Assembly: GCA_017436645.1 (NCBI GenBank)
Contig: JAFSCR010000030.1
Span: 10,083 to 74,082, forward strand
DNA: 64,000 nucleotides
Origin: Clostridia bacterium
GTDB lineage: Bacteria > Bacillota > Clostridia > UMGS1883 > UMGS1540
Direction: 5' to 3'
Of the stretch, positions 50,865 to 64,000 are shown piece after piece (within the stretch, counting starts at the first letter, position 1; the number at the start of each line of letters is the position of its first letter). A program made the position numbers and the translations under genes. The notes beneath the pieces are model-generated. The model did no database searches. It was given only the letters and a program-made list of their open reading frames with translations, and had not been told where the DNA came from.

Positions 50865-51647
50865 TCACTTCTTCTTCTTTTCTTCTACTTCATCACCGTA
50901 ACGGTAGTTGTAGCCGTACTTATAGCTGTAACGGTACCCGTATTTATATTTATAACCGTGCTTGCCTCGTTTGTAATAGCTGTAACGGGCTGCACGCTCG
51001 TTGCAGTCAACCATTACAACACCGAGAATTTTTGCATCTGCAATTTTGAGGTTTTCCATTGTTTCGTCCAGAAGATCGTAGGTTGTATAATTTTCACGAA
51101 CAATAACAATGGCGCCCGTGCTGTACTTGGTAACGATGAGCGCATCCGTAACAACGGTGACGGGAGGTGTGTCAATAAAGATGTAATCGTAGGACTTGCG
51201 AAGCGTAGCTAAAAGCGCAGCAAATTCCTCTGTTTCCAGAAGTTCTGCAGGGTTTGGCGGAATGGCACCGGCCGTCAGGCAATCCAAGTTTTCACGTACG
51301 TTATGTTTAATTGTTTTTTCCAGTTCTGAAAAACCGCAAAGTACATTGGAAAGACCGTCCGTTCTTTCCAGCCCTAAATACTTGTGCACTCTTGCTTTTC
51401 GAAGGTCAGCATCTATGAGGATTACTCTTGCACCCATCTGTGCAAAGGTGATGGCAAGGTTTATGGAAGTTGTGGTTTTACCTTCATTCGGAGAGGAACT
51501 TGTAACAACAATTACTTTTCCGCCTTCCGATTTCGGCATGGAGAACATAATATTTGTACGGATGGATTTATAAGTTTCAATGGTGTTAAAATCTGTCTGG
51601 TCTGTCAGAACAAAATTGATTTCATGGTCATTTTTTACTTTAGCCAT
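50865..51647 (-). CDS. cpsD: BY-kinase (CpsD/YwqD-type tyrosine autokinase) with a long C-terminal Tyr/Lys/Gly-rich tail
   Basis: Walker A SSPNEGKTTTSINLA and Walker A'/B motifs are present. The C-terminus reads YSYYKRGKHGYKYKYGYRYSYKYGYNYRYG. Confidence 0.9.
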   Translation of the reverse strand: MAKVKNDHEINFVLTDQTDFNTIETYKSIRTNIMFSMPKSEGGKVIVVTSSSPNEGKTTTSINLAITFAQMGARVILIDADLRKARVHKYLGLERTDGLSNVLCGFSELEKTIKHNVRENLDCLTAGAIPPNPAELLETEEFAALLATLRKSYDYIFIDTPPVTVVTDALIVTKYSTGAIVIVRENYTTYDLLDETMENLKIADAKILGVVMVDCNERAARYSYYKRGKHGYKYKYGYRYSYKYGYNYRYGDEVEEKKKK

Positions 51648-51662
51648 TTTCATGCACCTCCC

Positions 51663-52340
51663 TTACTGACTGATGTTGCCCAAGATAGATACATCGTATC
51701 GTTTGGCAACATCTTCGCCTTTGTGCACTTTTTTATCAAACAAATTCAAAAGAAATGCGATTACAGCACCCAGGAAGGCACCAATGGCGAACCCGAGAAC
51801 GGTTTTCCGGCCTGTGCCCGGATCTACCAGCGTACCTACGCTGTTAATTTCGTCAATAATTTCAACGGCACCGCCATTGAGAACACTCTGCAGCTTGCCC
51901 GGCGCTTTTTGCATAATTGTGGATGCAATGGCACCGGCGTCTTCAGCAGAGGTGGCTTTGACGGAAATGGTAAGAAGCTCTGTTTCGTTCACGGAGTTAA
52001 TTGTGAGCATGGATTTGATTTCTTTCCAGGTGTATTTGGACCCGGTTGCCTCACTGACATCCGTCAAAAAAGAACGGGACTTTAAAATTTCAATATAACT
52101 GTTAATAAGAGAACGGGAGGTGGAAATGTCACTTCCGGAAATTACGCCCTCAATGCTCTGCTCGGTACGGTTGCGGACATAAAGCATGCCGTCTGCCACA
52201 TATTGGTCGTCGGTAAAATACACGGTTTTCACCAAAAATAGTGTTGCCATAAGGCAGGCCAGCGTGATAATCAAAAATTTGTTAAGCCAAAATATACGCA
52301 AAATGTCGGTTACAGCCAGATCTTTTGCTTGTTCGTTCAT
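51663..52340 (-). CDS. cpsC: Wzz/CpsC-type chain-length regulator (BY-kinase transmembrane activator)
   Basis: The start is chosen at MNEQAKD, which has a GGAGGATGG RBS. Two TM helices flank a periplasmic-type domain, and the product is 225 aa. Confidence 0.85.
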   Translation of the reverse strand: MNEQAKDLAVTDILRIFWLNKFLIITLACLMATLFLVKTVYFTDDQYVADGMLYVRNRTEQSIEGVISGSDISTSRSLINSYIEILKSRSFLTDVSEATGSKYTWKEIKSMLTINSVNETELLTISVKATSAEDAGAIASTIMQKAPGKLQSVLNGGAVEIIDEINSVGTLVDPGTGRKTVLGFAIGAFLGAVIAFLLNLFDKKVHKGEDVAKRYDVSILGNISQ

Positions 52341-52505
52341 ATTCCATCCTCCTAAAAATACTATTATAACCTTATTAATTCTATCACAGACAAAAGACAA
52401 TGTCAACATTAAATTGTGCTTTCGGGGCGAGTTTTTTGTGGAAAAGTACTTGCAAGATTCGTTTGGGTGTGGTATACTGAATAAAAAAAAGGAGTTCTTT
52501 TGAAA

Positions 52506-53156
52506 ATGGCCGAAAACGCTGAAAAACCAAAGGGAATAAAGAAGAAGCTGGAAAACTTTTGGTATCATCATCAAATTGCAACCTTGGTTACTGTGTTTAT
52601 TGTCTGCAGTGCCATTTTTCTGACGGTGGATTATCTGAGGAAACAGGATCCTGACATGGTTCTGACTTACGTAGGAGCGGAATTTGGGGATAAGACCCAG
52701 TTTATCCGTGCAGAGGACGACCTTCTTGCGGTTGTGGGCGATATAAACGGTGACGGAAAAAAGAAAATGAATTACCGCATGATTGTCATACGGGAGGACT
52801 GGACGACCTATGACGTGGACAAAGAACAGCACTTTAATTATTCCTTTATTGATAAAAATGTGCGCCTCTATGTTATAGAAGAACGGTTTTTTGAGCAAAA
52901 GAAAATATTCTTTGAACCGCTGGAAGGCATTTTGCCTGACGAGTTTCTCAAAGAGGGACTTAAAAACGATGAGGGTCAGGTTTGTGCAGTGCCTCTTGCA
53001 GGCAGCGAAGTGGCAGAGAAAATGGATTTCGCAAGACCCGGTCTGTATGTGGGCATAAAGCGCATGATTGATACGGAAAAGCACGAGAAACTGGTGCCGG
53101 CCCAGTTTGAAAAGTCCAAAGACCTGATTCGTTACATTGTAACGGGGGAGAAATAA
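52506..53156 (+). CDS. hypothetical membrane-anchored protein
   Basis: An extended -10 element (TGgTATACT) and an AAGGAG RBS precede the gene. A single N-terminal TM helix is present, and there are no recognisable domains. Confidence 0.6.
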   Translation: MAENAEKPKGIKKKLENFWYHHQIATLVTVFIVCSAIFLTVDYLRKQDPDMVLTYVGAEFGDKTQFIRAEDDLLAVVGDINGDGKKKMNYRMIVIREDWTTYDVDKEQHFNYSFIDKNVRLYVIEERFFEQKKIFFEPLEGILPDEFLKEGLKNDEGQVCAVPLAGSEVAEKMDFARPGLYVGIKRMIDTEKHEKLVPAQFEKSKDLIRYIVTGEK

Positions 53157-53168
53157 AAAAACAGTAAA

Positions 53169-53198
53169 GAAAGCACAAAAAGTGCTTTCTTTTTTTGT
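53169..53198 (+). terminator. rho-independent terminator
   Basis: aaagaaagcacaaaaagtgctttcttttttt. Confidence 0.65.
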
Positions 53199-53206
53199 GC
53201 GGATGC

Positions 53207-53235
53207 TTGACTTTTGTGGAAAAATATAGTATAAT
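53207..53235 (+). promoter_or_regulatory. sigmaA-type promoter of the decarboxylase operon (TTGACT-17-TATAAT)
   Basis: TTGACTtttgtggaaaaatatagTATAAT. Confidence 0.5.
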
Positions 53236-53298
53236 CGAAGTCAAATGCGATTATTTTTTGCCAAAAGCAAAAATGAGAGTACATAGGAGGTATTTTTC

Positions 53299-54675
53299 AT
53301 GAAAGTACAATTTACTGAAACCGTGCTGCGTGACGCAAACCAGTCCCTTATTGCAACCCGTTTGCCGTTTGATAAGTACGCCCCCATCCTGGAAACGATG
53401 GACAAGGCCGGCTTTTACTCGGTAGAATGCTGGGGCGGTGCAACATTTGATTCCTGTCTGCGTTTTCTCGATGAGGATCCCTGGGAACGTCTTCGCAAAA
53501 TTAAAGAAAAGTTGCCGAACACGAAGCTCCAGATGCTTCTCCGCGGCCAGAATCTTTTGGGGTACAAGCATTATCCCGATGATGTTGTAAGAAAGTTCAT
53601 TCAGCACTCCGTGTCCAACGGTATTGACATTATCCGTATCTTTGACGCTCTCAACGACCTTCGCAACATCCGTGTTGCCGTTGAAGAAACCAACAAATGC
53701 GGCGCACTCGCTTCCGGTGCGATTTCCTATACCACAAGCCCTGTGCATACCCTTGAAAACTATGCAAAGCTTGCAAAGGAAATGGAAGAAATGGGCGTTG
53801 GCTCCATCTGTGTAAAAGACATGGCAGGTGTTATGAGCCCTCAGGAAGCTTATGACCTTGTAAAGGCAATCAAGAGCGCTGTTAAGGTTCCCGTTGTTGT
53901 GCATACACATTGCACCACAGGTCTTGCATTTATGACTTATATGAAGGCTATCGAAGCCGGTGCAGACGTTGTAGATACTGCAATTTCCTGCTTCTCCGGC
54001 GGTACAAGCCAGCCTGCAACAGAAACACTCGTATATGCAATGCGTCAGGCAGGCTACGAAGTAGACGTTAACGATAAGTGCCTTAAGGAAATCAACGATT
54101 TCTTCAAGCCTATCCGTAACGAATATCTCGAAAGCGGTCTTTTAGAACCCACCGTTTTGGCAACCGATACAAATGCGCTGAACTACCAGATTCCCGGCGG
54201 TATGCTTTCTAACCTCATTTCCCAGCTGAAGGCACAGAATGCGCTTGACCGTCTCGATGAAGTTTTAATTGAAACCCCGAAGGTACGTAAGGACCTTGGC
54301 TATCCGCCGCTCGTAACACCCATGAGCCAGATGGTTGGTGTACAGGCTGCAACAAACGTTCTTATCGGCGAACGCTATAAGAACATCAGTAAGGAAGTTA
54401 AGGCATATCTCCGTGGTGAATACGGTCAGGCTCCCGGCGAAGTCGATAAAGAGCTTATAAAGAAAGCCCTTGGCGACGAAGCACCCGTAACCTGCCGCTT
54501 TGCAGATACTTTGGAAGATGCTTTCGAAAAGACAAAAGCAGAACTCGGCGACAAGGCAAAATGTGATGAAGATGTTCTTTCTTACATTGCATTCCCTCAG
54601 GTTTACGAAAAGTTCAATGAAAAACGTCAGGCAAAACTGGAAAACCGTGCAAAGTACACCATCGAAGAAATGTAA
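53299..54675 (+). CDS. oadA: oxaloacetate decarboxylase alpha-subunit carboxyltransferase domain (5S-type, no biotinyl domain)
   Basis: The N-terminus FTETVLRDANQSLIATRL, an HMGL-like TIM barrel and an OadA-type conserved C-terminal domain are present. At 458 aa it is short and lacks the biotin-attachment domain. Confidence 0.88.
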   Translation: MKVQFTETVLRDANQSLIATRLPFDKYAPILETMDKAGFYSVECWGGATFDSCLRFLDEDPWERLRKIKEKLPNTKLQMLLRGQNLLGYKHYPDDVVRKFIQHSVSNGIDIIRIFDALNDLRNIRVAVEETNKCGALASGAISYTTSPVHTLENYAKLAKEMEEMGVGSICVKDMAGVMSPQEAYDLVKAIKSAVKVPVVVHTHCTTGLAFMTYMKAIEAGADVVDTAISCFSGGTSQPATETLVYAMRQAGYEVDVNDKCLKEINDFFKPIRNEYLESGLLEPTVLATDTNALNYQIPGGMLSNLISQLKAQNALDRLDEVLIETPKVRKDLGYPPLVTPMSQMVGVQAATNVLIGERYKNISKEVKAYLRGEYGQAPGEVDKELIKKALGDEAPVTCRFADTLEDAFEKTKAELGDKAKCDEDVLSYIAFPQVYEKFNEKRQAKLENRAKYTIEEM

Positions 54676-54702
54676 TTACGGAAGTAAGAAAGGATTTTGA
54701 AA

Positions 54703-55008
54703 ATGGTTATCATGTCAACTCTTATTAATGCGATTGTCTGCATGGCGGTTGTTTTCGCTGTTCTCATTGTTCTGATGCTTTTCATTTCTGTAATGAGTAA
54801 GCTGATGAAAAAAGAAGAAGCACCTGCCCCTGCGGCAGCATCTGCAGCTCCTGCACAAGCTCCCATGGCAGCCCGTGGCAGCTGCGGCGAAGTAAAGCTC
54901 TTTGACGTGCCCGATAAAACGGCAGCACAGCTTATGGCAATTACGGCAGATAAGCTCGGCAAACCTTTAAACACACTGCGCTTTGTTTCTATTAAAGAAG
55001 TGAAATAA
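54703..55008 (+). CDS. oadG: Na+-decarboxylase small membrane subunit (OadG-like)
   Basis: A single TM helix is followed by an Ala/Pro-rich linker, as in OadG/MmdD-type subunits. Confidence 0.7.
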   Translation: MVIMSTLINAIVCMAVVFAVLIVLMLFISVMSKLMKKEEAPAPAAASAAPAQAPMAARGSCGEVKLFDVPDKTAAQLMAITADKLGKPLNTLRFVSIKEVK

Positions 55009-55026
55009 GAGAAAGGAAGAAATAAA

Positions 55027-55425
55027 ATGGGAATTTATAAAATCACATTAAACGGAAAAACATATGAAGTAGAAGTAAAAGAAGGCGAAGCCATTGTAGC
55101 TGCAGAATACGAAGCTGCAGCACCCGTAGCCGCCCCTGTAGCCGCTCCCGCAGCACCTGCAGCACCTCAGGCTGCACCTGCACCTACTGCCGCTCCCGCA
55201 GTAACAGGCAGTGGCGAAGTTGTTTCTTCTCCTCTTCCCGGCACCGTTCTTGACATTAAGGTAGCCCAGGGCGCAGCCGTTAAGGCCGGCCAGCTTCTCG
55301 TTATTATCGAAGCTATGAAAATGGAAAATGAAATTTTAGCACCGAAGGATGGCACTGTTTCTCAGATTGTTGCCTCCAAGGGCGCATCCGTTGAAAGCGG
55401 CGCTCCCCTCCTTGTAATTGCATAA
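55027..55425 (+). CDS. biotin carboxyl carrier protein of the decarboxylase
   Basis: An Ala/Pro linker is followed by the biotinyl domain EAMKMENEI. Confidence 0.9.
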   Translation: MGIYKITLNGKTYEVEVKEGEAIVAAEYEAAAPVAAPVAAPAAPAAPQAAPAPTAAPAVTGSGEVVSSPLPGTVLDIKVAQGAAVKAGQLLVIIEAMKMENEILAPKDGTVSQIVASKGASVESGAPLLVIA

Positions 55426-55438
55426 GGAGGACAACCTG

Positions 55439-56629
55439 ATGAAGATTTTAGATGTACTTCAAAAACTCTGGGAAACTTCCGGCATTGCGCAGATTGCGGC
55501 ACAGTTTTCAAGCGACGGTGTTTTACAGCTTATTATGATTGCGCTTGCCTGCGTACTGCTTTATCTCGGTATTGTAAAGAAGTTTGAACCCCTTCTTTTA
55601 GTTGGTATTGCATTTGGTATGCTGCTTACAAACCTGCCCCTCTCCGGCGTGTTTACGCCTGAGTACTGGAACACGGCAGGGGATATTGATTATGCAGAAG
55701 TCCTCCGTCACGGCGGTCTTTTGGATATTCTGTATATTGGCGTTAAAACGGGTCTTTATCCGTCGCTTATCTTCCTTGGAGTTGGTGCTATGACGGACTT
55801 TGGCCCCATGATTGCAAACCCCAAGTCCATGCTCATGGGCGCAGGCGCACAGTTTGGCATTTCCTTCGCACTGGTTATGGCAATTCCGTTCTTTGCACCT
55901 GAAGTAGCCGCTTCCATTGCGATTATCGGCGGTGCTGACGGCCCTACAGCCATCTGGCTGACGAAAACCCTTGCACCCCATATGCTTGCACCCATCGCTA
56001 TTGCAGCATATTCCTATATGGCACTCATTCCCCTCATTCAGCCTCCCATTATGAAGCTGATGACCACGAAAAAAGAACGGGGAATCAAAATGGAACAGCT
56101 CCGTCCCGTTTCCAAAACGGAAAAGATTGTGTTCCCCATTATGGTTACCATCGTAACCTGTCTCGTTCTGCCCTCTGTTGCGCCCCTTCTCGGTTGCCTC
56201 ATGCTTGGTAACCTCCTGAAGGAATGCGGCGTTACGGACCGTCTTTCCGATACCGCACAGAACAACCTCATGAACATTGTTACAATCTTCCTGAGTGTTT
56301 CCGTAGGTGCTACCGCACGTTATGACACATTCCTTAAGACTGATACACTCCTCATTATTGTGCTTGGTCTTACGGCATTCTGCTTTGCAACCTTCGGCGG
56401 TCTTCTCGTTGGTAAGATTATGTGTAAGCTTTCCGGCGGTAAGATTAACCCCCTTATCGGTTCTGCAGGCGTTTCCGCCGTTCCTATGGCGGCACGCGTA
56501 TCTCAGAGCGTAGGGCAGAAAGCAAACCCCTCCAACTTCCTTCTCATGCATGCCATGGGTCCCAACGTTGCAGGTGTTATCGGTTCTGCTGTTGCGGCCG
56601 GATTCCTTCTCGCCGTATTTGGTGGCTGA
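55439..56629 (+). CDS. oadB: Na+-transporting decarboxylase beta subunit
   Basis: The start is chosen at MKILDVL, which has an AAGGAGG RBS. The product is a polytopic OadB/MmdB family protein. Confidence 0.9.
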   Translation: MKILDVLQKLWETSGIAQIAAQFSSDGVLQLIMIALACVLLYLGIVKKFEPLLLVGIAFGMLLTNLPLSGVFTPEYWNTAGDIDYAEVLRHGGLLDILYIGVKTGLYPSLIFLGVGAMTDFGPMIANPKSMLMGAGAQFGISFALVMAIPFFAPEVAASIAIIGGADGPTAIWLTKTLAPHMLAPIAIAAYSYMALIPLIQPPIMKLMTTKKERGIKMEQLRPVSKTEKIVFPIMVTIVTCLVLPSVAPLLGCLMLGNLLKECGVTDRLSDTAQNNLMNIVTIFLSVSVGATARYDTFLKTDTLLIIVLGLTAFCFATFGGLLVGKIMCKLSGGKINPLIGSAGVSAVPMAARVSQSVGQKANPSNFLLMHAMGPNVAGVIGSAVAAGFLLAVFGG

Positions 56630-56642
56630 TAGAAAATATAAA

Positions 56643-56672
56643 AGGCACGGTTTTAAACCGTGCCTTTTTTGT
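56643..56672. terminator. bidirectional terminator
   Basis: aaaaggcacggttttaaaccgtgcctttttt. Confidence 0.65.
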
Positions 56673-56676
56673 ATGC

Positions 56677-57399
56677 TTATTTACGTAATTTCCGGCAATA
56701 TTGTGTGCAAAGCTTGTCCGTACATTCTGAACATCTGAGCGCCATATTGCTGTTTTCCCAGAACCGCTCGGGATAGGTAAAGACGCATACTTCCCAGATG
56801 ATAAAGATAATAACGGAGAGACCAAAGAGGGACCAGGAGAAAAAGCTGTTTACCATAATCAGGGGAGAGAACATCATGAGGTGGTCCCAGTTAAATATGC
56901 GGCAGGTGGTGCAGCATTTGTTTTTCATGATGAGACGAAACGGGCACCAGATGAGAACGCAGATAAGGTCGCATACGTAAAAGAGTACGGAAATGAGCAC
57001 CACACCTGCTGTATCCAGAAACCCTTTTACATATAAAAAGCCAATCAGAACACTCAATGCACCCCATAAAACCATGACTTTATAGGCGGCGGCGGTGGTG
57101 TCCTTCACATATTTTTTTAGATTTTGATAATTTATTTTTTCTTTGATGGGACGGAAGAGGGAGGGAAACAGCTTTTGCGACCCGATGGAAATGTGGGCCC
57201 GAATGGGCAGGAGCTGCAAAATCATGTCCCATATCCATATGCCCCAAAGAATGTGGAGAACGGAAAAAGTTTCAAAAAAATGCATTCCTTCAGCAGGGAA
57301 AAACACATCTTTTCGGAATAAATATAAATATACGGTGAGCGCCAATATGCCGCATCGGGCAAAAAGGCGGATAAAGTAAATTTTTCTTGTCTTTGACAT
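56677..57399 (-). CDS. hypothetical polytopic membrane protein with a C-terminal Cys-rich region
   Basis: The start is chosen at MSKTRK, which has a TGGAGG RBS. Six or so TM helices are present. The C-terminal segment reads KNKCCTTC...RCSECTDKLCTQYC. Confidence 0.55.
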   Translation of the reverse strand: MSKTRKIYFIRLFARCGILALTVYLYLFRKDVFFPAEGMHFFETFSVLHILWGIWIWDMILQLLPIRAHISIGSQKLFPSLFRPIKEKINYQNLKKYVKDTTAAAYKVMVLWGALSVLIGFLYVKGFLDTAGVVLISVLFYVCDLICVLIWCPFRLIMKNKCCTTCRIFNWDHLMMFSPLIMVNSFFSWSLFGLSVIIFIIWEVCVFTYPERFWENSNMALRCSECTDKLCTQYCRKLRK

Positions 57400-57467
57400 A
57401 GTGCCTCCAAAAGTATTAAGTACCTTTTTAGTATAACATTTTTCTGCACAAAAGTCAATGCACACAA

Positions 57468-57498
57468 AAGGCGATTGCATAAAATACAATCGCCTTTA
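57468..57498 (-). terminator. relict lysS terminator displaced by the island insertion
   Basis: The hairpin aaaggcgattg/caatcgccttt lies directly downstream (on the minus strand) of the lysS 3'-end remnant PTMKTLS*. Confidence 0.4.
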
Positions 57499-57518
57499 AT
57501 GCTTATAAAGTTTAGCTC

Positions 57519-57537
57519 AGCGTCTTCATGGTGGGGA
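57519..57537. repeat. attL-like 19-bp direct repeat (AGCGTCTTCATGGTGGGGA), a copy of the lysS 3' end
   Basis: It is identical to 63247-63265. On the minus strand it encodes ...PTMKTLS* followed by the relict terminator. Confidence 0.7.
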
Positions 57538-57722
57538 TTAGGGTCCCAATAATCACATAACTCATTATAACTCTACACAATCCTTTATATAAGGCGTTTT
57601 CAGAATATCCATTTTCACATAAGTCTTCAAGCCTATATAATATATGCACAAAATGGTGTGGTGATTTAGTGTGGTTGGTGTAGTAACCTCTTTAATTACT
57701 AAATAGTATTTCTTCAAATCCC

Positions 57723-57771
57723 TTGACATTTTGCACAAAGTATGTTAGTATGTTTACATACATACTTTGTG
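57723..57771 (+). promoter_or_regulatory. promoter (TTGACA-17-TAGTAT) overlapped by a 12-bp perfect inverted repeat (C-box-like operator)
   Basis: The arms cacaaagtatgt (57734-57745) and acatactttgtg (57760-57771) flank the -10 element. RBS GGAGGTGA follows. Confidence 0.55.
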
Positions 57772-57785
57772 GAGGTGAAAAACGG

Positions 57786-58121
57786 ATGGCTACGGATAAA
57801 AAAGCGTTTGGCAATTTCCTTCGGGAAATGATAAGTCAGACAAAAATATCGCAGGCAGCTTTTTATGAAGCTGTGGGGATTACAAAGCCATATTTTTATG
57901 ACATATTATCCGGCAAAGTCAATCCACCACCACCGGATATACAGTATAAAATGCTTGAAAAATTAACTGTTAATGAAAAACAGCGAAAGCAGTTTTTGAA
58001 CTTGGCTGCTGAGGGACGCAGCGAAATCCCTGCAGACATTGCAAAATTGATTACGGATAATCCGCGGCAGCTTGAAAAAATACGAACAACACTTACAGAA
58101 CTGCTTGTAAAGCAGAGATAG
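57786..58121 (+). CDS. XRE-family HTH regulator (R-M controller C-protein-like)
   Basis: The 111-aa product has an HTH (ISQAAFYEAVGITKPYFYDILSGK). It is the first gene of the R-M cassette and lies immediately downstream of a palindromic operator. Confidence 0.75.
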   Translation: MATDKKAFGNFLREMISQTKISQAAFYEAVGITKPYFYDILSGKVNPPPPDIQYKMLEKLTVNEKQRKQFLNLAAEGRSEIPADIAKLITDNPRQLEKIRTTLTELLVKQR

Positions 58122-58131
58122 GAGGATAGAT

Positions 58132-60234
58132 ATGGCGGCATTACAAGAGCTTATTGCAAAAATAGAAAACCCGGAGCTTCGTGCGCAGATACAGGAAGCA
58201 GCTGACAAGGCATTAAAGCGCAAACAGTTCGGACTTGTATTCGAGGAACACCTGCCAGAATGTACTCCTCTTCACGACGTCCCCGTAAGAAAAGGAAAGC
58301 GTGTATCTCTGAAGACAGGCAAGGTAAGCGAAACTTATAAAGTATTGGAAATTCAAGGAGACAAAGCAATCTGTTTACCAAAGGACAGCAATGAGGCTGT
58401 TGAATTTTCGATAGATGACCTTGTTGTAACGGCAGAATTTGGTGAACCAATCTACCCCTGCTTGAAGCCTCTTGGCGAAGTGTGCAACGCGCCGGACAGC
58501 GAACTTTGGCATACTCTTATTGAGGCAGATAATTATCATGCGCTCCAGCTTCTTGAATATCTTTATGGCGGCAAGGTGGATTGCATTTATATCGACCCTC
58601 CCTATAATACAGGAGCAAAAGACTGGAAATACAATAATGATTACGTAGACGGAACCGATGAATATAGGCACAGCAAGTGGTTATCATTTATAAAAAAGCG
58701 TCTTGAAATTGCAAAACGCCTATTAAACCCAGAAAGTTCAGTGTTATTTATTACAATTGATGACAAAGAATATTTGCATTTGGGTTGCTTATTGGAAGAT
58801 ATGTTTCCAGAAGCAAGAATTCAAATGATAAGCGATGTAATTAATCCAAAAGGGACTATGCAAAGAAAAAAGTTTCCAAGAACAGACGAATACATTTTCT
58901 GTGTATGGCTTGGAGAAGCAGAACCAACCGAATTAACCCTTTCGAAGGATTGGTTAATTGGTGATGCTGATAATACTAATCGCAACAGGTATAGATGGGT
59001 TACATTCATAAGAACGGCCCCAAATGTTAGCAGAAGCAAAACTCCTTCTATGTTTTATCCAATATTTGTAAACAAGGAAGGAACAAAAATTATTAGAGTA
59101 GGTGAATCATTAGGCAAGGAAGTTGATTATCAAACGATAAAACCGCAAGAAGGAGAATGTGTTCTATTTCCGATTAACTCTCAAGGGCGTGAGGTAATTT
59201 GGCATTTGACACAAACCTCCTTAATGGAAGCATATTCAAAAGGATTCGTGAAATTGAGCGGAATTACAAAAAACGGAGTTAGTATTTCATATTTGCCTTC
59301 TGGAATGCAAAAAAAGATTTCAGATGGTGATATACCAATCTTAGGGTATGATGAAAATGGCGCTGTTATTTTTGATGCATCTGATTATGCTCCGCAATTT
59401 ATGCCTGGTACACAGTGGAGAATAAAAACACATGATGCAACAGAACACGGAACGAAATTATTACAGAAATTAATAGGCAACAGATTTTCTTATCCCAAAT
59501 CCTTGTATTCAACCAAAGATTGTATTAACTTTTTTCTGTGTAATAAGCCTAATGCGTTGATTGTGGATTTTTTTGCTGGCTCAGGAACAACTCTCCATGC
59601 AATCAACCTCCTAAATGCAGAGGACGGAGGCAACCGACGTTGTATAATGGTAACAAACAATGAGGTTTCAGGAGACGAAGCGAAGACATTAACAGCAAAA
59701 GGACTTAAGCCAGGGGATAAAGAATGGAATAACCTCGGTATAGCTCGCTATGTCACATGGCCTCGCACAGTATGTTCTATAGAAGGACATGACGTAAACG
59801 GTAATCCGTTAAAGGGGAATTACATAGGAAGTGATATTCCTATGGCAGACGGATTCAAAGCGAACGCCGCTTTCTTCAAATTAGGTTTCCTTGATAAAAC
59901 AAAGGTTTCACTCGGTATGCAGTTCAAAGAACTTCTATCAACCTTGTGGATGAAGGCAGGAGCAATCGGCAGATGTCCTGTCGTTGATGCAACTGTGCCG
60001 GATATGCTGATTCTGCCGGAAAATAAGATGGCAATTCTCAATGATGAAAATCAATTTGGTGTATTTGCAGAAAAACTCGCAGAGCACCCGGAAATTGACG
60101 TTGTATATCTTGTTACAGATTACGAAGGAAGCTTTGTGGCAATGACGCGTGAGCTCCCAGGAAAAACTACATATCAGCTTTATAGAGACTATCTTGATAA
60201 CTTTAGAATTAATGCAGGGAGGAACAGCAGATGA
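58132..60234 (+). CDS. mod: Type III restriction-modification system methyltransferase (Mod, N6-adenine, beta class)
   Basis: Motif IV IYIDPPYNTG precedes motif I DFFAGSGTT, with a variable target-recognition region between them. The N-terminus LLEYLYGGKVD is typical of EcoP15I-like Mod. Confidence 0.88.
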   Translation: MAALQELIAKIENPELRAQIQEAADKALKRKQFGLVFEEHLPECTPLHDVPVRKGKRVSLKTGKVSETYKVLEIQGDKAICLPKDSNEAVEFSIDDLVVTAEFGEPIYPCLKPLGEVCNAPDSELWHTLIEADNYHALQLLEYLYGGKVDCIYIDPPYNTGAKDWKYNNDYVDGTDEYRHSKWLSFIKKRLEIAKRLLNPESSVLFITIDDKEYLHLGCLLEDMFPEARIQMISDVINPKGTMQRKKFPRTDEYIFCVWLGEAEPTELTLSKDWLIGDADNTNRNRYRWVTFIRTAPNVSRSKTPSMFYPIFVNKEGTKIIRVGESLGKEVDYQTIKPQEGECVLFPINSQGREVIWHLTQTSLMEAYSKGFVKLSGITKNGVSISYLPSGMQKKISDGDIPILGYDENGAVIFDASDYAPQFMPGTQWRIKTHDATEHGTKLLQKLIGNRFSYPKSLYSTKDCINFFLCNKPNALIVDFFAGSGTTLHAINLLNAEDGGNRRCIMVTNNEVSGDEAKTLTAKGLKPGDKEWNNLGIARYVTWPRTVCSIEGHDVNGNPLKGNYIGSDIPMADGFKANAAFFKLGFLDKTKVSLGMQFKELLSTLWMKAGAIGRCPVVDATVPDMLILPENKMAILNDENQFGVFAEKLAEHPEIDVVYLVTDYEGSFVAMTRELPGKTTYQLYRDYLDNFRINAGRNSR

Positions 60235-63068
60235 AAATAAATTTAATATCGTTTCAGGACAAGGCTGTTAAAGACCTGCGTAAGAAAATGGCGGTCGCTC
60301 AGAGCAGCTATAAAATAGAAAAAAGCACGCAGGTTGTTTCGCTTCAGGCACCTACAGGTGCAGGCAAAACAATTATTGCAGCAGCGGTTATTGAGGATAT
60401 TTATTTTGGCTCGACACTTGCGGATGGAACTACATTCGACGAACAGCCGGAAGCAATTTTCGTGTGGCTTTCTGACTCGCCGGAGCTCAACACGCAATCA
60501 CGTCAAAAGATTGAGCTTAAAACGAGCAAACTGAAGTATGGTCAGTGCGTGACAATCGAAGACGATTCCTTTGATATGGAAATGCTTGAGGACGGACATG
60601 TTTATTTTCTGAATACACAGACAATAAGTAGAAGCGGCCGACTCACTCAACATTCGGATAATAGACAGTATACAATATGGGAAACTCTTGATAACACCAT
60701 ACAGAACAAATCCGACAGACTGTATTTTATTATCGATGAAGCGCACCGTGGTGCAAAAAGCAAACGCGAAGCAGGCACCGATACCACAATAATGCAGCGC
60801 TTTATCAAAGGGTATGAATATACAGAAAATAATATCAAAAGAAAAATGCGTTCAATGCCTGTCGTTCTTGGCATAAGTGCGACAGCAGAACGTTTTAACA
60901 CTTTGATTAAGAACACCGGCGATGTTGTGCTAAGACAATATGTTGTTACAGCTGATGAAGTCAGAAGCTCCGGCCTTTTAAAAGACAGAATTGTTATCAC
61001 CTATCCGGAAGACCCGACCAAAAACAATGATATGGTGCTTCTGGAAGCAGCCGTGGAAGAATGGCTGAAAAAGTGTAAACGATGGTATCAGTATACTTAC
61101 GAACAGCATTATGCAAACGTTGACCCCGTTCTTGTGGTGCAGGTTTGCAAAGGAAGTGGCGGTGCTGTTTCTGATACCAACCTTGAAGATGTGCTTGCAA
61201 AGATTGAAGAAAAAGCGGGCATTCATTTCAAGGCTGGAGAAGTTGTACATTGCTTCGGAGAAGGAACAACACTTGAATTATGCGGACTTAGTATTCCTCA
61301 TGTGAAAGCATCTGAAATAGTTGATGATCATAAAATCAAGGTGGTTTTCTTCAAGGAAGCATTGTCTACAGGTTGGGACTGTCCGAGAGCAGAAACAATG
61401 ATGTCCTTTGCGGTAAGAAACGACCCGACTTACATTGCACAGCTACTTGGCAGAATGGTGAGAACACCACTTCAAATGCGCGTGCAGCGTGATGAATTCT
61501 TAAACGATGTAAAGCTTTATCTTCCCCATTTTGACAAGGATAACGTTAAAAAGGTTGTAGAGGAACTTCAGAGTAATGAAGGCGGTGACATTCCCACAGA
61601 GATTAACGGTGAATCTTTGGAGGAACCGACTTACATTACATGGACGGTACACACACCTCGTAGAAATCGTCAAAACGAGCAAAACCCGGATCAAATATCA
61701 TTATTTTATGACCAGCTGGCAGAGCAGAATGATAATACTGTTCCATATAATCTCCCGACAGTCGCGAACAATCCTACAAGAGTGTTAAATTCCGGAGACA
61801 ATGTGCCGGAATACATACCACCACAGACGGTTACTGTTCCGGCATCTCCTGTAGCACAGCAACAGACTCCTTTTGAACCGACACCGGCAGGAAAACAGCT
61901 TGAGTTTACTGTAGACATAGACCGAGTTGAAATAATAAACTTTATAAATTCAAAGGGGTATTTGACATATCTTGTAAGACAAGATCGCATAAATGATTAT
62001 TTAAAATCATTGCTCGACCTTGCAACATTGCTGACAATTAATGTCATTTATCAGGGAGCACGTGATGAAGTTATTGACGATATAATAGCTCTCATTCGTG
62101 AATATATTGAAGAATTGCATCACACAGGCAGATACAAAGAACTTGCTGAGCATATTTTGCAGCACAAGTTGTCAGTACAAATATTTGACCCGTTCGGAAA
62201 AGATGTTACAGAAAACTATACCAATGACTTTACTTTGATGTCAGAAACTGACCTTGACAGGCAGTTAAGAAATGCAGATGCCAAAATGGGCAGATATGGT
62301 TTTCCCAATATTTACGGCGGCAGATATTACGATGAAGACAATCCAAATGCTCACAAAATTGATTGTATTCTTTTTGCCGAGGATGAAGCATGCCGAACAA
62401 AGCTGGGTGAGTATGCAAAGGAAAAATTATACGAATTCGTTGCTAAGTTCAGACTCGCAATCGTTAATAAATCCGATGCGTGCAAAAAGAAATATCACGA
62501 CATTCTTGCAGATAGTGATATTGTCAGCGAACAGATTTTTGCTATTCCCGAAAACATCAGTGTAAGAGAAGACCCCGAAGGCAAAGAGTATGAAAACCAT
62601 TTGCTTGCATCTGAAACAACAGGCATTGCAAGAATCAAGTTAAACGGCTGGGAAGCAGACCTTATCGAAGAAGAATCCCGCAGAAATGACTTTGTTTGCT
62701 GGCTCAGAAATCCTGCACGTGCTTCATGGGCACTGTGTTTACCTTACGAAATAGGCGGAGAAAAGAAATCCTTCTATCCGGATTTTCTGATTGTACGCAG
62801 CGATAATGAGCTTGATTATGTCGTTGATATTCTTGAACCTCATGGAAATCAGTATAGCGACAATCTTCCAAAAGCAAAAGCCCTTGCGGAATATGCAAAA
62901 AAGGAAGACCGTATTGGAAGAATACAGCTTATCCATAAGAGCAGCGATGCTGCTGGCGTCAGCCATTTCAGACGTTTGGATTTAACAAACCTTACAGTCC
63001 GTGACAAAGTTCTTCAGGCAATGAATAATGACGAGCTTGATCATATTTTTGATACAGACGGAATATAA
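60231..63068 (+). CDS. res: Type III restriction enzyme Res subunit (SF2 helicase plus C-terminal nuclease)
   Basis: Walker A LQAPTGAGKT, DEAH box IIDEAHRG and motif VI QLLGRMVRTP are present. The C-terminal region has a PD-(D/E)xK-like motif (YPDF...DILEP). It overlaps mod by 4 nt (ATGA). Confidence 0.85.
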   Translation: MKINLISFQDKAVKDLRKKMAVAQSSYKIEKSTQVVSLQAPTGAGKTIIAAAVIEDIYFGSTLADGTTFDEQPEAIFVWLSDSPELNTQSRQKIELKTSKLKYGQCVTIEDDSFDMEMLEDGHVYFLNTQTISRSGRLTQHSDNRQYTIWETLDNTIQNKSDRLYFIIDEAHRGAKSKREAGTDTTIMQRFIKGYEYTENNIKRKMRSMPVVLGISATAERFNTLIKNTGDVVLRQYVVTADEVRSSGLLKDRIVITYPEDPTKNNDMVLLEAAVEEWLKKCKRWYQYTYEQHYANVDPVLVVQVCKGSGGAVSDTNLEDVLAKIEEKAGIHFKAGEVVHCFGEGTTLELCGLSIPHVKASEIVDDHKIKVVFFKEALSTGWDCPRAETMMSFAVRNDPTYIAQLLGRMVRTPLQMRVQRDEFLNDVKLYLPHFDKDNVKKVVEELQSNEGGDIPTEINGESLEEPTYITWTVHTPRRNRQNEQNPDQISLFYDQLAEQNDNTVPYNLPTVANNPTRVLNSGDNVPEYIPPQTVTVPASPVAQQQTPFEPTPAGKQLEFTVDIDRVEIINFINSKGYLTYLVRQDRINDYLKSLLDLATLLTINVIYQGARDEVIDDIIALIREYIEELHHTGRYKELAEHILQHKLSVQIFDPFGKDVTENYTNDFTLMSETDLDRQLRNADAKMGRYGFPNIYGGRYYDEDNPNAHKIDCILFAEDEACRTKLGEYAKEKLYEFVAKFRLAIVNKSDACKKKYHDILADSDIVSEQIFAIPENISVREDPEGKEYENHLLASETTGIARIKLNGWEADLIEEESRRNDFVCWLRNPARASWALCLPYEIGGEKKSFYPDFLIVRSDNELDYVVDILEPHGNQYSDNLPKAKALAEYAKKEDRIGRIQLIHKSSDAAGVSHFRRLDLTNLTVRDKVLQAMNNDELDHIFDTDGI

Positions 63069-63239
63069 AACAAAATGCCGGCAGGGAAATAAACCCCTGC
63101 CGGTTTTGATATTCACAAATAAAAGGACTACGGAAATCCCGTAGTCCTTAAACATTTAGGAACCTTTTTTAATTTTTACACACATTAGTGCACCTTTTTG
63201 GTGTAGTAACACCCTAAAAGCCTTGATTTACACTATTAC

Positions 63240-64000
63240 TCATCCAAGCGTCTTCATGGTGGGGAAGAGGAGCACGTCACGAATGGCGGAGGAATCGGTA
63301 AGGAGCATGCACATTCTGTCAATACCGAAGCCGATACCGCCTGTGGGGGGCATGCCGATTTCGAGGGCGGTCATAAAGTCCTCGTCTGTGGTGTTGGCTT
63401 CTTCGTCACCTTGGGCAAGGAGTGCTTCCTGTGCTTTGAAGCGTTCACGCTGGTCGATGGGGTCATTCAGCTCGGAATAAGCGTTTGCCATTTCCCAGCC
63501 GTTCATGAAGAACTCAAAGCGTTCCACATAGTCGGGGTTACCCGGCTTTTTCTTCGTAAGAGGAGAAATTTCAACCGGATGGTCCATAACAAAGGTGGGC
63601 TGAATGAGATGTTCTTCAACGAATTCTTCAAAGAAGAGGTTTAAGATGTCGCCTTTTCCGTGGCGTTCTTCGTATTCCACATGGTGTTCCTTTGCTACCT
63701 TGCGGGCGTCTTCCAGCGTTTTAATTTCATTAAAGTCTACGCCGGAATATTTCTTTACGGCATCCAGCATGGTGATTCTTTCAAAAGGCTTGCCAAGGTC
63801 CATTTCAATGCCGTTATATACGATTTTGGTGGTGCCGAGTACTTCCTGTGCCACGTGGCGGTAGAGGTTTTCGGTAAGGTCCATCATGCCGTGGTAATCG
63901 GTGTATGCCTGATAGAGTTCCATTAAGGTAAACTCGGGATTATGACGAGTGTCAACCCCTTCGTTACGGAATACTCTGCCGATTTCATACACACGGTCTA
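63240..64000 (-). CDS. lysS: lysyl-tRNA synthetase, class II (C-terminal part; the gene continues beyond the right edge of the window)
   Basis: Class II motif 2/3 region (FRNEG...; [27 protein letters not shown]) is present. The frame is open to position 64000. Confidence 0.92.
63247..63265. repeat. attR-like 19-bp direct repeat within the 3' end of intact lysS
   Basis: AGCGTCTTCATGGTGGGGA is identical to 57519-57537. Confidence 0.7.

Follow-up and report, generated by a model that had tools for sequence, protein, structure and literature searches.

How does a restriction-modification (R-M) operon come to lie, with no recombinase gene beside it, in the 3' end of a lysyl-tRNA synthetase gene? 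The question is raised by a 64,000-nt stretch of DNA from a Clostridia bacterium (GenBank assembly GCA_017436645.1, contig JAFSCR010000030.1, positions 10,083-74,082 of the forward strand), referred to here as the window, in which an island carrying a small regulator gene, mod and res lies between two short direct repeats at the end of lysS. The island is probably an integrase-less integrative element, similar to the cis-mobilizable elements (CIMEs) of streptococci, with a regulated Type III R-M operon as its cargo and the 3' end of lysS as its site of insertion.

The window contains exactly two copies of the repeat, AGCGTCTTCATGGTGGGGA, one at 57519-57537 and the other at 63247-63265, both on the plus strand. 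No third copy is present even when up to two mismatches are allowed, and the number expected by chance is zero, none of 100 dinucleotide-preserving shuffles containing any match; at 92% identity the direct repeat is 24 nt long. The copies enclose 5,709 bp with a GC content of 40.1%, compared with 47.3% for the remainder of the window, a value below that of all 519 of the 519 equal-sized windows elsewhere (mean 47.4%, s.d. 1.6%, minimum 43.7%). GC content at third codon positions (GC3) is 34-37% in the three island genes versus 48-58% in the flanking genes. Independent assemblies from other samples contain both copies of the repeat, both of the arm motifs described below and the whole island at 99.97-100% identity, so the structure is neither a chance match nor an assembly artefact.

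The two copies of the repeat carry two different ends of the same gene. lysS lies on the minus strand, and the window holds its 3' half only (63240-64000, running off the end of the window; Pfam tRNA-synt_2, E = 4e-62), the full-length gene of 500 aa being seen in another locus, L001. The right copy, the exact core of attR (63247-63265), is situated inside the intact gene and on the minus strand encodes FPTMKTL of the full-length LysRS, with a glycine codon and the stop following directly (L-G-stop; 63240-63246, minus strand, by direct reading). The left copy, the exact core of attL (57519-57537), reads PTMKTLS-stop on the minus strand, the last codon and stop (L-S-stop) occupying 57512-57518 on the chromosomal side of attL, with the stop codon itself at 57512-57514. 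A strong hairpin is found beyond it (57467-57497, minus strand; fold -22.9 kcal/mol, z = -6.3), and only after this hairpin comes the promoter of the neighbouring membrane-protein gene. At the right-hand end, the island contains a terminator of its own downstream of the lysS stop (63123-63149, minus strand; terminator scan, 12-bp stem with a T tail, -19.5 kcal/mol, z = -5.4). The direct repeats are thus placed as the attachment (att) sites of a CIME are, with one copy in an intact housekeeping gene and the other carrying a displaced gene end.

LysRS homologues were searched, and the genomic context of the closest ones inspected, for unoccupied sites. A site with a single copy of the repeat was found in one locus (L126), from a sister species, in which LysRS is 98% identical in protein and lysS 91% identical in DNA. 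Here lysS is followed by the hairpin, by the same gene for a 240-aa membrane protein and by oadB, with no island. In the blastn comparison L126 aligns to window positions 51180-57537 and, separately, to 63244-64000; the left-flank alignment stops exactly at the inner edge of the attL core, the right-flank alignment begins just outside the attR core, and the two overlap by 22 nt in L126 across the repeat. The single repeat region of L126 therefore matches both copies in the window, as expected of an unoccupied attachment site. Past the left copy the window reads GAGCTAAA and then the hairpin, which is homologous to the native L126 end, GGGCTAAA, and then the same hairpin, situated in L126 right after the lysS stop; the displaced last codon and stop are homologous to the L126 end CTGGGCTAA, with one base different in the last codon. 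Past the right copy the bases (TGGATGA...) are not homologous to L126, yet they encode G-stop, the same ending as that of the native L126 gene. Because the bases beyond the left copy are homologous to the L126 gene end, it is the left copy that carries the displaced native end of lysS, its hairpin being the native terminator now separated from the gene.

Homologues of the membrane-protein gene were also tried as a route to empty sites and were rejected, synteny not being kept at ~75% identity. A search of 185,579 species genomes for the 19-mer itself gave 31 matches, none of them attP-like; two are in lysS (L034 and L010), and the remainder are chance matches in unrelated genes that encode PTMKTL. 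The viral contigs contain no match. The two lysS genes, from Lachnospiraceae/Blautia, encode a LysRS that runs past PTMKTLG into a fused C-terminal tRNA-binding domain (PF01588; 639-690 aa; L034:1544-3616 and L010 ~1700-2760), which places the 19-mer core mid-gene in these relatives; the genus of the window has the short, 500-aa LysRS.

Between the repeats and the R-M cassette lies DNA that belongs to the island and not to the cassette. Nucleotide homology to the closest relatives of the cassette is confined to the region from 57709 (promoter) to 63103 (terminator), leaving a left arm of ~170 bp and a right arm of ~140 bp. The left arm (57538-57708, plus strand) is unique, with no homologue in any of the fetched loci. 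A 13-mer, TTGGTGTAGTAAC, is found in the window only twice, once in each arm and in the same orientation: at 57675-57687, 138 bp inside the left core, and at 63198-63210 (plus strand), 49 bp before the attR core. Degenerate copies, ATGGTGTGG and TTAGTGTGG, are located just upstream of the left-arm copy. The 13-mers are candidate arm-type sites, and arm-type repeats on both sides of the core are the arrangement seen in att sites of heterobivalent tyrosine integrases (lambda or Tn916-Int type). A promoter-like site facing the regulator gene (TTCACA, 16 nt, TATAAT; 11/12 matches) is also present in the left arm, at 57612-57641 on the plus strand.

No recombinase gene (integrase, resolvase or transposase) was found in the island, and tblastn, phmmer and a small custom tyrosine-recombinase hidden Markov model found none in the 64-kb window, which therefore holds no cognate integrase. 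Only three island open reading frames have support, those of the helix-turn-helix (HTH) regulator, Mod and Res, with no functional gene for an integrase, excisionase, relaxase, coupling protein or type IV secretion system (T4SS), as in a CIME. The window contains no tRNA gene, and a scan of 56500-64000 detected no Rfam family. Much of the original prediction, which had been made from the sequence alone, stands on this evidence: the exact 19-bp repeat at these positions, the AT-rich insert, the displaced lysS end with its relict terminator at the left copy and the lack of any integrase or recombinase are all confirmed, and the comparison with relatives that it had suggested finds an empty site in L126. 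Together with the displaced native end and the arm-type repeats, that empty site also supports its view that the island had become integrated at the lysS 3' end and is now either decayed or mobilised in trans.

The relatives of the cassette are instructive with regard to the kind of element involved. Homologues of Res were collected from metagenomes and viral contigs (82 loci, 52-80% identity). None of the 82 has lysS as a neighbour, and no comparable flanking repeats were found around more than 60 related cassettes, only background matches of 12-17 nt; mini-islands flanked by direct repeats are therefore not a property of the cassette family. The closest cassettes are parts of mobile elements: that of L046 has a small serine resolvase gene 200 bp upstream, that of L048 a phage capsid gene downstream, and those of L044 and L050 have tyrosine integrases nearby.

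A further relative, L052, is a 13.3-kb element on the metagenome contig SAMEA104315427__coassemble_367, inserted in the 3' end of groEL. A 21-bp repeat (20/21 identical) marks its two ends, the last groEL codons (GGMY-stop) being formed by the right copy, and the fall in GC content from 58-66% outside to 45-53% inside coincides exactly with the repeats. Adjoining the left repeat is a Tn916-type integrase (Integrase_DNA PF02920 and Phage_integrase PF00589). The regulator-mod-res cassette of L052 is homologous to that of the window (Res 75%, Mod 65%, HTH 49% identity), and the two elements have in common the orientation of the cassette towards the target gene, the same promoter and operator, and the position of the direct repeat in the last codons of a housekeeping gene. 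The L052 arms carry pairs of TTGGTGTA or ATGGTGTA, ~150-160 bp inward of the left core and, at the other end, ~60-70 bp short of the right one, with six copies in the locus compared with 0.31 expected; in motif, in orientation and in the similar spacing on both sides, the TTGGTGTA arm repeats correspond to those of the window island. The differences are that L052 keeps its integrase, AAA_25, DUF6100 and Fic genes and an IS66 transposase, that its target is groEL and not lysS, and that its arms can be aligned with those of the window at the motif only. The L052 integrase has at least 120 relatives, all at least 70% identical among the matches listed; a comparison with viral contigs gave one distant match, which is uninformative. 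An integrase 79% identical to it occurs in an element of ~4.4 kb (L141:7000-11400) together with DUF6100 and Tn916-Xis genes. A groEL-like core, ATGTACTAAGAGA, is found beside this integrase, yet the neighbours are a folC-like gene and a Meth_synt_2 fragment and not groEL; this could be a secondary-site insertion or a rearrangement.

The origin of the window island as a CIME-like element may be pictured as follows. An attP site with a 19-bp mimic of the F-P-T-M-K-T-L codons recombined with that stretch of lysS, a step shown by the comparison with L126. The gene stays intact because its last codon, stop and terminator are replaced by others that the element brings, while the native ones were displaced by 5.7 kb upon insertion. 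The recombinase was presumably a tyrosine integrase of the Tn916-Int type, with an N-terminal arm-binding domain, since both arms carry direct copies of TTGGTGTAGTAAC with L052-like spacing. The integrase and the backbone of the element would later have been deleted, at about 57688-57709 on the left and 63104-63122 on the right, leaving the self-stabilising cargo; alternatively, the cassette may have been captured between pre-existing att sites. R-M systems cause post-segregational killing, and by analogy the R-M genes are likely for this reason to have outlived the mobility genes. Movement would now be possible only via a compatible integrase acting in trans, or through the neighbouring integration of a related element (accretion). 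The predicted attB consists of GTTTAGCTC, the core and AGAGGAGCAC; the restored junction would read GTTTAGCTC-AGCGTCTTCATGGTGGGGA-AGAGGAGCACG, and the attP junction CACTATTACTCATCCA-AGCGTCTTCATGGTGGGGA-TTAGGGTCCCAATAATC.

A number of observations weigh against this account. The empty site comes from a sister species and not from the window's own (lysS 91% identical at the nucleotide level, flank 85%), and the L126 core differs from the window core at 4 of 19 positions. In the window's own species the island is present in every contig, and an exact look-up in a collection of 15 billion proteins did not find the predicted uninterrupted LysRS allele ending in TLS. The island arms have no homologue in the fetched loci beyond chance matches of 13-14 nt (blastn). 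Derivation by deletion is suggested by the match to L052 in architecture and arm motif; neither a cognate integrase, nor an attP form, nor an intact parent element with the lysS core was found in the window, the species genomes, the viral contigs and the fetched loci. Despite 79% identity between the L141 and L052 integrases, the arm motif of L141 is another one, made up of TGTAGA repeats, so the link between motif and integrase is drawn from a single element, L052, plus the internal 13-mer repeat. Finally, the very tidy layout of the island could mean capture of the cassette between att sites and not decay.

It is also conceivable, if rather unlikely, that the island, composed of arm, promoter, regulator-mod-res, terminators and arm, still moves as a non-autonomous satellite cassette, excised and integrated in trans by the integrase of another element. 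In favour of this, the two 19-bp cores and the two 13-bp arm sites are all perfect and undecayed, no backbone pseudogene fragments lie between the arms and the cargo, a replacement lysS terminator has been brought along, and the GC3 values, still far from those of the host, suggest recent arrival. The integrase family related to that of L052 is, moreover, very abundant in gut metagenomes. However, neither a circular or attP form nor another insertion site turned up in the 185,579 species genomes and the viral contigs, the identical Mod occurs in one context only, the 64-kb window is devoid of an integrase, and the mini-element layout or its flanking repeats recur in none of the 82 related cassettes. 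A wider proposal, that integrase-less satellite defence cassettes form a class moved in trans by the abundant Tn916-Int-family integrases of gut Clostridia, and that interchangeable defence modules have, in the genus, a dedicated docking site at the 3' end of lysS, is a tentative one that we would regard as improbable to a like degree.

Considerably less probable is that the R-M unit moved by itself, through insertion with a long target duplication and no site-specific recombinase, as has reportedly been proposed for R-M genes by Nobusato, Furuta and Kobayashi from genome comparisons. A unit made up of R-M genes only, lying between direct repeats, with a single copy of the repeat in a relative and no recombinase gene, is compatible with such an event. 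Against it stand the ~170 and ~140 bp of DNA inside the repeats that are neither R-M nor target sequence and that carry matching 13-mers, and the right junction, which provides a functional alternative gene end and terminator; homologous cassettes lie in integrase, resolvase and phage elements without such duplications.

The flank downstream of lysS is variable among the relatives. oadB follows lysS directly in L127 (LysRS 95% identical; L127:11504-11582), and L126 has the membrane-protein gene only. In L125 (LysRS 98%) three TTAAGCC repeats are followed by HTH_36, a MobL relaxase and an AbiEi-like gene (L125:2672-5909). L128-L137 (LysRS 91%) have a gene of unknown function and a Fic gene (L128:11504-13751), and L146 (LysRS 94%) has three TACTACGCC repeats and then a low-GC island (L146:11507-21506) with GmrSD_N, HEPN_RiboL-PSP and a second pair of ResIII and N6_N4_Mtase genes. 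A different defence-type or mobile module is thus found at this flank in each related species examined. Judged by sequence, the triple repeats just past the lysS stop in L125 and L146 look like the arm sites of other integrases, and the flank has the appearance of a docking hotspot that mobile and defence modules share. Two loci of one species, L138 and L128, are 99.7% identical over 8.1 kb, yet L138 diverges over the final ~90 nt of lysS (L138:8040-8600 compared with L128:11390-11560); its LysRS ends in FFPTMKPESK, a different gene begins 3 nt past the stop, and the 3' end of lysS has apparently been replaced together with the downstream DNA. The 240-aa membrane-protein gene between the island and oadB (56677-57399, minus strand) belongs to no Pfam or NCBIfam family and has thousands of homologues. 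Those at ~75% identity lie in unrelated neighbourhoods, and the gene is absent between lysS and oadB in L127, so this flank may have received the gene in an earlier insertion; no repeats were seen on either side of it.

This variability raises the possibility of a recombination hotspot after lysS, at which the island was acquired from a donor through homologous or illegitimate recombination, the 19-bp repeat being a by-product of microhomology. The lysS 3' flank does differ in every relative examined, and in L138 the last ~90 nt of the gene were replaced along with the gene downstream. But homologous replacement does not duplicate a gene end, and the duplication in the window is precise, in frame and flanked by arm-type repeats; the islands of L125 and L146, too, start with direct repeats in triplicate, 60-100 bp past the lysS stop, which indicates integrase arm sites rather than random exchange, and we give this explanation very little credence. 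Lastly, insertion of a transposon or insertion sequence with a 19-bp target-site duplication, or a chance or assembly artefact, is effectively refuted, since the direct repeats that flank the insert are accompanied by no terminal inverted repeats and no transposase, 19 bp far exceeds the usual lengths of target-site duplications, the chance expectation is zero and the structure recurs in independent assemblies.

The cargo of the CIME-like element consists of three genes on the plus strand. The first (57786-58121) encodes an XRE-type, controller-like HTH regulator of 111 aa (Pfam HTH_31 and HTH_19, E ~2e-5, below the curated cut-offs), homologues of which (41-75% identity) are located upstream of mod in L043, L046, L048 and L052. 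The second, mod (58132-60234), encodes a Type III N6-adenine methyltransferase of 700 aa (PADLOC MTase_III PDLC03645, E = 2e-172, full length; Pfam N6_N4_Mtase), with matches in the PDB to the H. pylori Mod and to EcoP15I Mod; it is assigned to the beta class because DPPY precedes FAGSGT in the translation. The third, res (60231-63068), overlaps mod by 4 nt and encodes the superfamily 2 (SF2) helicase and putative nuclease subunit of 945 aa (Pfam ResIII and DEAD, weak PADLOC REase_III). Walker A, DEAH, SAT and motif VI are conserved in Res across 12 homologues. Similarity to the REase_III profiles is partial and weak (E = 1e-8) and no sequence match was found in the PDB, for which reason the system is called a divergent Type III system. 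The plasmid and phage collections contain only methyltransferase-motif similarity. In the C-terminal part of Res, residues 847-872 (window 62769-62846) form a nuclease-like block, PD-x15-D-x2-EPH followed by KDNL, that is invariant in 12 homologues at 52-80% identity and differs from the classic PD...(D/E)xK signature.

As in the two-gene operons of Type III systems, mod is upstream of res, under a single promoter and with a terminator at the end, a bidirectional hairpin (63077-63104, plus strand; terminator scan, -22.9 kcal/mol, z = -5.7) at which homology to the relatives stops (63103). The promoter (TTGACA, 17 nt, TG-n-TAGTAT; 57723-57751, plus strand; promoter scan 10/12, with an extended -10) overlaps a putative palindromic operator, the two together spanning 57723-57771. 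The operator is an inverted repeat, 57734-57750 and 57755-57771, with a core dyad GTATGT-NN-ACATAC that is invariant in five cassettes while the flanking bases vary. From what is known of its family, the XRE-type protein would bind the dyad over its own -10 and so limit expression of the operon, and the position of the operator predicts simple autorepression of the whole operon. Mod would methylate adenine in an asymmetric site, and the Mod-Res complex would cut unmodified incoming DNA, again as expected from the families. The original prediction had described the cassette as a C-protein plus a Type III R-M system; the three genes and the Type III Mod are upheld, but the regulator has no match to any solved C-protein even at E <= 10 and none in NCBIfam or PADLOC. 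Its position and the conserved dyad suggest a controller-like role, and membership of the C-protein family does not follow from its sequence.

The R-M genes resemble those of EcoP15I and EcoP1I in the overlap of mod and res, in a beta-class N6-adenine Mod related to EcoP15I Mod and in the SF2 motifs and C-terminal nuclease-like block of Res; they differ in that Res is very divergent, in the sequence of that block (PD...D-x2-EPH in place of PD...ExK) and in the HTH regulator upstream. That regulator shares with C.PvuII, C.AhdI and C.Esp1396I the features of a small HTH protein encoded first in the operon and of a conserved palindromic operator overlapping the promoter, although at 111 aa it is longer than typical C-proteins, and an operator placed over the -10 suggests plain repression of the operon and not a switch that first activates and then represses the nuclease gene. 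The C-proteins covered by a 2025 review are those of Type II systems and of one Type I locus (PMC12707154), so it is of some small interest to find a controller-like regulator at the head of a Type III operon.

The mode of insertion is well documented. Most integrative and mobilizable elements (IMEs) with tyrosine recombinases enter the 3' end of a tRNA gene or a housekeeping protein gene and leave that gene undisrupted. CIMEs, att-flanked and without an integrase, have been defined and their size range and prevalence described (PMC5704250; PMC7563491); in Streptococcus salivarius the 'classical CIMEs' carry cargo genes, measure 1.2-13 kb and have a prevalence judged very high, and it is acknowledged that single CIMEs are missed by searches for signature genes (PMC7563491). 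The 3' end of lysS itself is a target of tyrosine integrases of streptococcal integrative and conjugative elements (ICEs), with direct repeats of 13-17 bp in its last bases (PMC4701971; PMC7168690). The original prediction had considered the targeting of a protein gene by a defence island without its own recombinase to be uncommon; with lysS a published ICE target and CIMEs so prevalent, that claim of rarity is not supported.

What the locus adds is that attachment at the lysS 3' end, known from streptococcal ICEs, extends to uncultured Clostridia of the gut or rumen, and that a decayed integrative element can leave just its R-M cargo. For the annotation of recombinase-less defence islands, and for the study of mobilisation in trans, it provides a concrete att pair and arm motif. 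Compared with the large ICEs of the ICE_SsuGZ1_lysS kind (with conjugation modules of the vanG family and the ICESt3 type), which carry an integrase and conjugation genes, the island is small and has neither, and its direct repeat, 19 bp long, stops 7 nt short of the stop codon's end. In its testable features the element agrees with a CIME. Like the CIMEs of Firmicutes, for example those flanking elements of the ICESt1/ICESt3 family in the 3' ends of streptococcal fda, rpsI and rpmG, it has attL and attR sites, one of them with a housekeeping 3' end, lacks integrase, excisionase, relaxase and T4SS genes, and carries cargo only, its 5.7 kb falling within the range of 1.2-13 kb. It differs from them in standing alone and not in tandem with an ICE or IME, in having a complete regulated Type III R-M operon as cargo, in its host, an uncultured Clostridia metagenome-assembled genome from animal gut samples, and in that its origin by deletion is presumed. 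The island reveals no new mechanism; it is a familiar, stripped-down mobile element.

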